Assembly (NCBI RefSeq): GCF_003018255.1
Contig: NZ_CP027440.1
Origin: Escherichia coli
Lineage (GTDB): Bacteria > Pseudomonadota > Gammaproteobacteria > Enterobacterales > Enterobacteriaceae
Length of the DNA stretch: 64,000 nucleotides
Reading direction: 5' to 3' (one strand)
Shown: positions 31,480-31,590 of the stretch, piece by piece
How the letters are laid out: every line of letters starts with the position of its first letter
Numbering within the stretch: position 1 is the first letter of the stretch
Program-made: the position numbers and the translations under genes
The notes under the pieces: generated by a model
What the model saw: only the letters and a program-made list of their open reading frames with translations
What the model was told of the DNA's origin: nothing
Database searches by the model: none

Positions 31480-31590
31480 GCCTGATGCGACGCTAGTGCG
31501 TCTTATCAGGCCTACAAACCGGCTCTTTAACGCGTAGGGCGGATAAGGCGTTTACGCCGCATCCGCCAATAGTGCCAGATGCGACGCTCA
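31480..31590. repeat. BIME: cluster of REP (repetitive extragenic palindromic) units
   Basis: GCCTGATGCGACGCTAGTGCGTCTTATCAGGCCTAC, then inverted unit GTAGGGCGGATAAGGCGTTTACGCCGCATCCGCC, then partial TGCCAGATGCGACGCT; between convergent ypeC and mntH. Confidence 0.85.

Follow-up and report, generated by a model that had tools for sequence, protein, structure and literature searches.

The ypeC-mntH spacer and its genomic setting

We analysed a window of 64,000 nt from an Escherichia coli genome (contig NZ_CP027440.1 of assembly GCF_003018255.1), whose gene order tracks that of K-12 MG1655 from ~2.48 to 2.546 Mb. Within it, the genes ypeC and mntH converge on a spacer of 140 nt (31456-31595); the original prediction had read the pair as convergent, and both the open reading frames and the RefSeq annotation of matching genomes agree. 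An 801-nt query around the spacer matches 5425 of 5426 complete E. coli genomes, covers at least 80% of its length in 5319 of those 5425, and reaches an identity at its best place that is almost always at least 95%. The genes under these matches are annotated in RefSeq as ypeC and mntH, and the window is E. coli chromosome, in line with the claim that the DNA is typical enterobacterial chromosome. From 31465 to 31610, which includes the repeat part of the spacer, the sequence is identical to K-12 MG1655 base for base.

A search of the whole window with Rfam returned, at gathering score, only tRNAs elsewhere in the window and nothing in the ypeC-mntH spacer. The tRNAs form two clusters, at 36821-37008 (two tRNAs, minus strand) and 39707-40101 (four tRNAs, plus strand), which in K-12 are alaX-alaW and valU-valX-valY-lysV. 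The insertion sequence IS186C, found downstream of nupC in K-12, is absent from the window at about 34400.

Architecture of the REP cluster

The spacer contains a cluster of REP units that comprises two complete units (one Y-type and one Z2-type), half of a third unit (Y) and a vestige of a fourth (Table 1). Its layout is Z2 vestige, S linker, Y, linker, Z2, S linker minus 7 nt and half Y, which amounts to about 1.4 copies of the 94-nt BIME-2 unit; Tandem Repeats Finder reports nothing for the cluster. The original prediction had placed a BIME (multi-REP cluster) of three units in alternating orientation at 31480-31590, occupying almost the whole spacer. The cluster is indeed a BIME and its units do alternate (Y minus, Z2 plus, half Y minus), but only two of the three units are complete, the third being a left arm only (31574-31588), and the vestige with its linker at 31459-31479 had been missed. 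Together, units and linkers span 109 of the 140 spacer bases.

Table 1. Coordinates of the genes, repeat units, linkers and RNA signals discussed in the text (window positions)
Feature	Position	Strand	Evidence
ypeC CDS (DUF2502 protein)	31129..31455	+	ORF; annotation in matching E. coli genomes
C-rich, G-poor stretch of mntH read-through RNA, antisense to ypeC 3′ end	31250..31449	-	GC skew; Adams et al. 2021
Vestige, head of a further Z2-type unit (CATTCGCC; K-12 CGTCCGCC)	31459..31466		Direct repeat D1; Rfam naRNA4 model aligns
Head-to-head (S-type) linker, 13 nt, AATGGAGCACAAT	31467..31479		Aligned to S linker of RF02564; length equals that of the REP325 linker
Complete Y-type REP unit	31480..31515	-	Exact pattern match; inverted repeat I2; hairpin on both strands
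Tail-to-tail linker, 18 nt, AAACCGGCTCTTTAACGC	31516..31533		Direct reading; without IHF consensus
Complete Z2-type REP unit	31534..31567	+	Inverted repeat I3; comparison with REP325 and Nunvar 2010; Rfam naRNA4
Shortened head-to-head linker (S linker, 7-nt deletion)	31568..31573		cmscan alignment; comparison of left and right junctions
Half Y unit, left arm only	31574..31588	-	Direct repeat D2; half unit in all Escherichia examined
mntH CDS (Nramp Mn2+/H+ symporter)	31596..32834	-	ORF; annotation in matching genomes
Single Y-type REP between cysA and cysM (K-12 REP175)	57281..57316	-	Exact pattern match; K-12 alignment
GC-rich hairpin followed by UUUUU	57337..57369	-	Fold; directly after cysA stop, upstream of REP175 and cysM

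On alignment, both complete units match REP families. The Y unit, in which GTAG comes first on the minus strand, agrees with the Y-type pattern GCCTGATGCGACGCTNNNGCGTCTTATCAGGCCTAC at 33 of 33 specified positions with 0 mismatches, as does the single REP at 57281-57316; the number of matches expected by chance, from 100 shuffles, is 0.00. Compared with the Y units of REP325, 33 of its 36 positions are identical and the differences are confined to the loop, which is 3 nt long. Its hairpin is the first one past ypeC and lies 24 nt from the stop codon of that gene.

The second complete unit is an inverted palindrome with GTAG first on the plus strand, and its reverse complement is identical to the Z2 unit of REP325 at 32 of 34 positions. 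Both differences fall in a single base pair, which changes from C-G to G-C, so the stem is preserved. It is called Z2-type by comparison with Z2 references, namely this REP325 unit and the Z2 motif of Nunvar 2010, which it fits except at 2 conserved positions. The distance from the mntH stop codon to its hairpin is 28 nt. Both units have 14-nt arms that are 86% complementary (inverted repeats I2 and I3), both stems retain the 2-nt AA/GC mismatch, and the tetranucleotides at their feet are CTAC (31512-31515) and GTAG (31534-31537).

The outer parts of the cluster are incomplete. The half unit is identical to the left arm of the Y unit at 15 of 16 positions (94%); it lacks a right arm, so it is not a palindrome and cannot form a hairpin of its own. 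Only 7 nt separate its end from the mntH stop codon. At the other side, the vestige and its linker repeat the end of the Z2 unit together with the head-to-head linker (direct repeat D1). The vestige is backed as real by Escherichia sp. E1V33, in which one and the same 15-nt junction, TCCGCCAATGGTGCC, is present on either side of the cluster.

The Rfam model naRNA4 (RF02564), which describes the Z2-S-Y module of REP325, scores 48.7, 46.5 and 29.9 bits here against a gathering threshold of 59.5, and it aligns to both head-to-head junctions (48.7 bits, E = 8e-8; 46.5 bits, E = 2e-7). These sub-threshold matches show homology to the REP325 module, but they do not make the cluster a member of that sRNA family. 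When a 117-nt stretch across the cluster is used as the query, every E. coli genome yields at least 36-40 places that resemble it. Within the 64-kb window, a pattern search yielded no REPs beyond the ypeC-mntH and cysA-cysM loci, both of which are intergenic.

Relationship to known repeat elements

REP and BIME elements have been known since the 1980s, and the present cluster is an already known and ordinary example, being the same element as that at the K-12 locus and in essentially all E. coli. The RefSeq annotation (NC_000913.3 and PGAP records) carries no REP features at the ypeC-mntH locus; from the coordinates of REP171 and REP174 in the supplement of preprint 10.64898/2026.03.23.713779, its official K-12 number would be REP172 or REP173. 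No evidence of recent mobility was found at the locus.

Two main kinds of BIME have been described: BIME-1, in which Z1 and Y are joined by a long L linker that often holds an IHF site, and BIME-2, in which Z2 and Y are joined by a short S linker and occur in tandem copies (Ton-Hoang 2012, PMC3333891). By its sequence, we class the ypeC-mntH cluster as BIME-2-like (or ‘atypical’) and not as BIME-1, because it has Y and Z2-type units, S-type head-to-head linkers, a short tail-to-tail linker and no IHF consensus. The suggestion that such elements could serve here as an IHF site was unsupported, as the tail-to-tail linker has only 18 nt and the IHF consensus WATCAANNNNTTR was not found in 31456-31595 even when 1 mismatch was allowed.

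The closest comparison is with REP325, which lies between yjdM and yjdN in K-12 and consists of twelve alternating Z2 and Y units (preprint 10.64898/2026.03.23.713779). The two share their unit types, alternating orientation, S-type head-to-head linkers and extragenic 3′ position, and neither has a U-tract. However, REP325 has 6 repeat units and the ypeC-mntH cluster about 1.4; the latter is truncated at both ends and sits between convergent genes, whereas REP325 sits inside an operon. The tail-to-tail linkers are also unlike, with 18 nt (AAACCGGCTCTTTAACGC) in the ypeC-mntH cluster and 17 nt (GGAGGGTGCGGGAATTT) in REP325.

Three other kinds of element resemble the cluster in part. Like the BIME-1, RIP and RIB elements, it presents two inverted, tail-to-tail REPs at gene 3′ ends; one example, the BIME-1-like pair REP174 of K-12 (yfeS-cysM), differs in its Z unit, its short Y and the linker between them, which is 35 nt long and has a near-consensus IHF motif (ATTCAATATATTG). 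Like bidirectional intrinsic terminators, the cluster lies between convergent genes and offers stable GC-rich hairpins on both strands, but no A-tract or T-tract flanks them. Finally, it shares with the REPINs of Pseudomonas, which are mobilised by RAYTs, an inverted REP pair, a short spacer, the GTAG head and an association with a tyrosine transposase present as a single copy per genome; REPINs have one type of unit, while E. coli has two (Y and Z2).

RNA folding and terminator signals

The RNA of the spacer folds into the Y and Z2 hairpins on both strands, with a folding free energy of -54.5 kcal/mol for the plus strand (z = -4.05) and -57.6 kcal/mol for the minus strand (z = -2.82). A scan of 31000-32000, the spacer included, found no hairpin with a T-run on either strand, and its sole promoter-like site is inside mntH and not in the spacer. 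As neither an A-tract nor a T-tract flanks the hairpins, release of RNA polymerase cannot be intrinsic, and neither of the two convergent genes has an intrinsic terminator.

Comparison within and beyond E. coli

In eight of eight diverse E. coli strains, the cluster occupies the same place and varies only by point changes and 1-nt indels. We then compared one genome per species in a scan for YpeC, which gave 80 loci, 66 of them with both genes in the fetched DNA and in the same convergent arrangement (5 Escherichia and 61 other). All five Escherichia loci carry the BIME, eroded in differing ways: the layout in E. whittamii is that of E. coli, in Escherichia sp. E1V33 there is an internal deletion of Z2, the left arm of Y is missing from MOD1-EC7003, and E. 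albertii has only the linker, Z2, S linker and half Y.

The 61 loci outside Escherichia are organized differently. Their spacer is usually 29-60 nt long, and in 34 of them it holds a single perfect hairpin flanked by an A-run at one end and by a T-run at the other, which is the form of a bidirectional intrinsic terminator. In Citrobacter werkmanii, for example, this element reads TGTAACAAAAGAGCCTACGGGCTCTTTTGTTT; the Citrobacter terminator occupies 32 nt, compared with 130 nt for the BIME. A hairpin with a T-run occurs in a further 9 of the 61 loci, whereas terminator-type elements (a hairpin with a T-run) are found at none of the five Escherichia loci. Whether or not a species has the BIME, its ypeC and mntH coding sequences end alike, so only the spacer has changed.

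Two possible traces of the spacer's history were considered and rejected. The 3′ end of ypeC and the context of the mntH stop codon (CTAC) are not REP-derived, since species without the BIME share these coding ends. Nor does the tail-to-tail linker descend from the right arm of the ancestral terminator: the two agree at 10 of 13 positions (CCGGCTCTTTAAC and CGGGCTCTTTTGT), but other Escherichia lineages have TCCATTTAAC, which is less similar.

Species-specific REPs or BIMEs have entered the same spacer independently in Pseudocitrobacter, Kosakonia cowanii and Pseudescherichia. The Pseudocitrobacter spacer holds a tail-to-tail Y-Z pair between two copies of one terminator hairpin, AGCAGCCGGAAGGCTGCT; insertion of the BIME may have hit the terminator or duplicated it.

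We also examined the hairpins for covariation. Among 10 Escherichia sequences, no base pair has changed on both sides, and in the absence of compensatory changes within E. coli, selection on the hairpins at the ypeC-mntH locus is unproven. Two strains, E. coli EH01-18-04-A and ATCC 25922, carry G-to-A changes at two positions of the upper Z2 stem (equivalent to 31546-31549), which keep G-U pairs in the mntH-sense RNA and produce A-C mismatches in the ypeC-sense RNA. These changes are a weak hint that the mntH-sense fold matters, from too few events to interpret.

Two public-assembly records met in these comparisons appear to be contaminated or mislabelled. One, a 398-nt contig under the name Rhizobium wenxiniae, codes for a YpeC that is 100% identical to the E. 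coli protein; the other, a contig under the name Chryseobacterium sp. 18061, holds an enterobacterial ypeC-mntH pair.

Formation of the ypeC and mntH 3′ ends

Past the cluster in the direction of mntH transcription, published measurements locate a region of Rho-dependent termination. In supplementary file 2 of Adams et al. 2021 (PMC7815308), this minus-strand region, antisense in ypeC, is recorded with its best position at K-12 2511284 and a Rho score of 3.84 (p = 1e-10; bicyclomycin (BCM) data). With the offset set by ypeC, this position corresponds to 31412 in the window, 68 nt past the cluster, although the score comes from 800-nt windows and therefore places the termination point only roughly. 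The read-through RNA of mntH in this region is C-rich and G-poor, the GC skew of the plus strand being +0.17 to +0.24 across 31250..31449; the plus-strand RNA just past the cluster in the ypeC direction is also C-rich and G-poor. The composition of the RNA past the cluster fits Rho.

In line with the model of Peters et al., Dar and Sorek 2018 (PMC6061677) showed that Rho-dependent transcripts end at stable hairpins without U-runs, that transcription is terminated downstream of the hairpin with PNPase and RNase II trimming the RNA back to it, and that REPs account for some of these end hairpins. In addition, REP325 has been described as a partly Rho-dependent terminator that stabilises the mRNA upstream of it, and convergent gene pairs with a REP have higher expression (preprint 10.64898/2026.03.23.713779).

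We propose a mechanism by which the cluster would form both 3′ ends. The cluster probably owes its origin to the REP-associated tyrosine transposase or to replication slippage, with later erosion at both ends. RNA polymerase leaving mntH, and probably also ypeC, would cross it and enter the C-rich antisense RNA of the opposite gene, where Rho would end transcription. Trimming by 3′-to-5′ exonucleases would follow and stop at the stable Y and Z2 hairpins, which would set and protect the mRNA 3′ ends. In this way, the cluster would functionally stand in for the compact bidirectional intrinsic terminator in the spacers of other Enterobacteriaceae.

We assign a probability of about 0.6 to the core of this proposal, namely that mntH and ypeC transcripts are terminated by Rho and that the Y and Z2 hairpins keep 3′ exonucleases from their ends. 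Weighing against protection, terminal REPs showed no general effect on half-life (preprint 10.64898/2026.03.23.713779). In the text of the Adams et al. supplements (PMC7815308), no 3′ end is given inside the cluster or at its foot, and both mntH and ypeC are weakly expressed. The evolutionary extension of the proposal is more tentative, and we hold it at somewhat less than even odds: an Escherichia BIME would have displaced the conserved bidirectional intrinsic terminator and switched 3′-end formation of ypeC and mntH to a Rho-dependent process with REP-protected ends.

The cluster could instead be a relic, neutral or selfish and with no locus-specific role, left by a non-autonomous element that the REP-associated tyrosine transposase spread and that is tolerated in the spacer. 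In vitro, TnpA(REP) needs the GTAG tetranucleotide, a 2-nt stem mismatch and a cleavage context (Ton-Hoang 2012, PMC3333891), and both full units keep these features, with the GGCC|TACA cleavage context at the Y tail. The cluster is also eroded (half unit, vestige and 7-nt linker deletion), deletions of whole arms or units distinguish the Escherichia lineages, other REPs or BIMEs arrived independently in the same spacer of Pseudocitrobacter, Kosakonia cowanii and Pseudescherichia, and covariation within E. coli is absent. However, the cluster is kept in place with both hairpins intact in nearly all of the 5425 E. coli genomes, and the compensatory flip of one Z2 pair preserves the stem. Moreover, with the ancestral terminator lost, the 3′ ends of ypeC and mntH have to be defined in some other way. 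Taken together, a relic is an unlikely explanation, yet one with a serious claim.

A second alternative moves termination from the antisense RNA into the BIME, where the hairpins would pause RNA polymerase and termination, partly Rho-dependent, would follow. Transcription attenuation at BIMEs has been reported (Espeli et al. 2001, as cited in PMC6061677), transcription downstream of REP325 is lowered about 8- to 10-fold in a partly Rho-dependent manner, and 78 REPs lie within predicted bidirectional terminators (preprint 10.64898/2026.03.23.713779). Yet the best-scoring Rho position lies past the cluster and not inside it, the U-tract is absent, and the ypeC-mntH locus has only two hairpins while REP325 has twelve. 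We therefore regard termination within the cluster as distinctly unlikely.

The original prediction had also mentioned DNA gyrase, and the cluster might act at the DNA level as a site of gyrase binding and cleavage that relieves positive supercoils between the convergent units, a role that its position between convergent genes would fit. Against this, the cluster holds only about 1.4 repeat units, and the gyrase studies of BIME-2 reportedly used multi-copy BIME-2. Y and Z2 units with S-type linkers do define BIME-2, reported as a strong gyrase binder (Espeli and Boccard 1997, as cited by Nunvar 2010), but no role in chromosome compaction or REP-REP contacts was found for REP325 (preprint 10.64898/2026.03.23.713779). 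A gyrase site appears improbable at this locus. Translational regulation is very improbable: a REP hairpin close to a stop codon, within a limit of roughly 15 nt, is said to stall the terminating ribosome and to trigger tmRNA tagging, and the half unit, 7 nt from the mntH stop codon, is 79% complementary to the near arm of Z2 (I5), but the distance from the stop codon to the first true hairpin is 24 nt for ypeC and 28 nt for mntH, beyond that limit, and the minimum-energy folds pair Z2 with itself and not with the half unit.

Identical to its K-12 counterpart, the cluster carries little weight as a discovery; the novelty is modest and concerns this locus alone, where a BIME is found in place of the bidirectional intrinsic terminator that relatives keep. 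If hairpin-protected, Rho-dependent 3′ ends did replace that terminator, the spacer would be a natural experiment in which the same two genes are followed by a terminator (Citrobacter, Enterobacter and Klebsiella) or by a BIME (Escherichia), and the locus could test whether REP clusters functionally replace terminators. The spacer is a convenient test case for the debated role of REPs at gene 3′ ends.

A single REP between cysA and cysM

The original prediction of a second REP at cysM/cysA holds, as the unit is an exact match to the Y pattern, although it ends at 57316 and not at 57317. It differs from K-12 at one position inside the REP (GGCCTAC compared with GGTCTAC), and its K-12 counterpart, REP175, is listed as ‘tandem cysA-cysM’ (supplement of preprint 10.64898/2026.03.23.713779). 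The GC-rich hairpin between the cysA stop codon and this REP (Table 1) looks, from its predicted fold, like a terminator or attenuator internal to cysPUWAM; a simple terminator scan missed it because of its long (internal) loop.

Next to cysM, the window is without a K-12 segment of ~950 bp that lies between yfeK and cysM and contains yfeS and REP174. At the corresponding site (56343-56346), the stop codons of yfeK and cysM are 2 nt apart. This yfeS-less arrangement is that of the majority of E. coli genomes (4038 of 5425).
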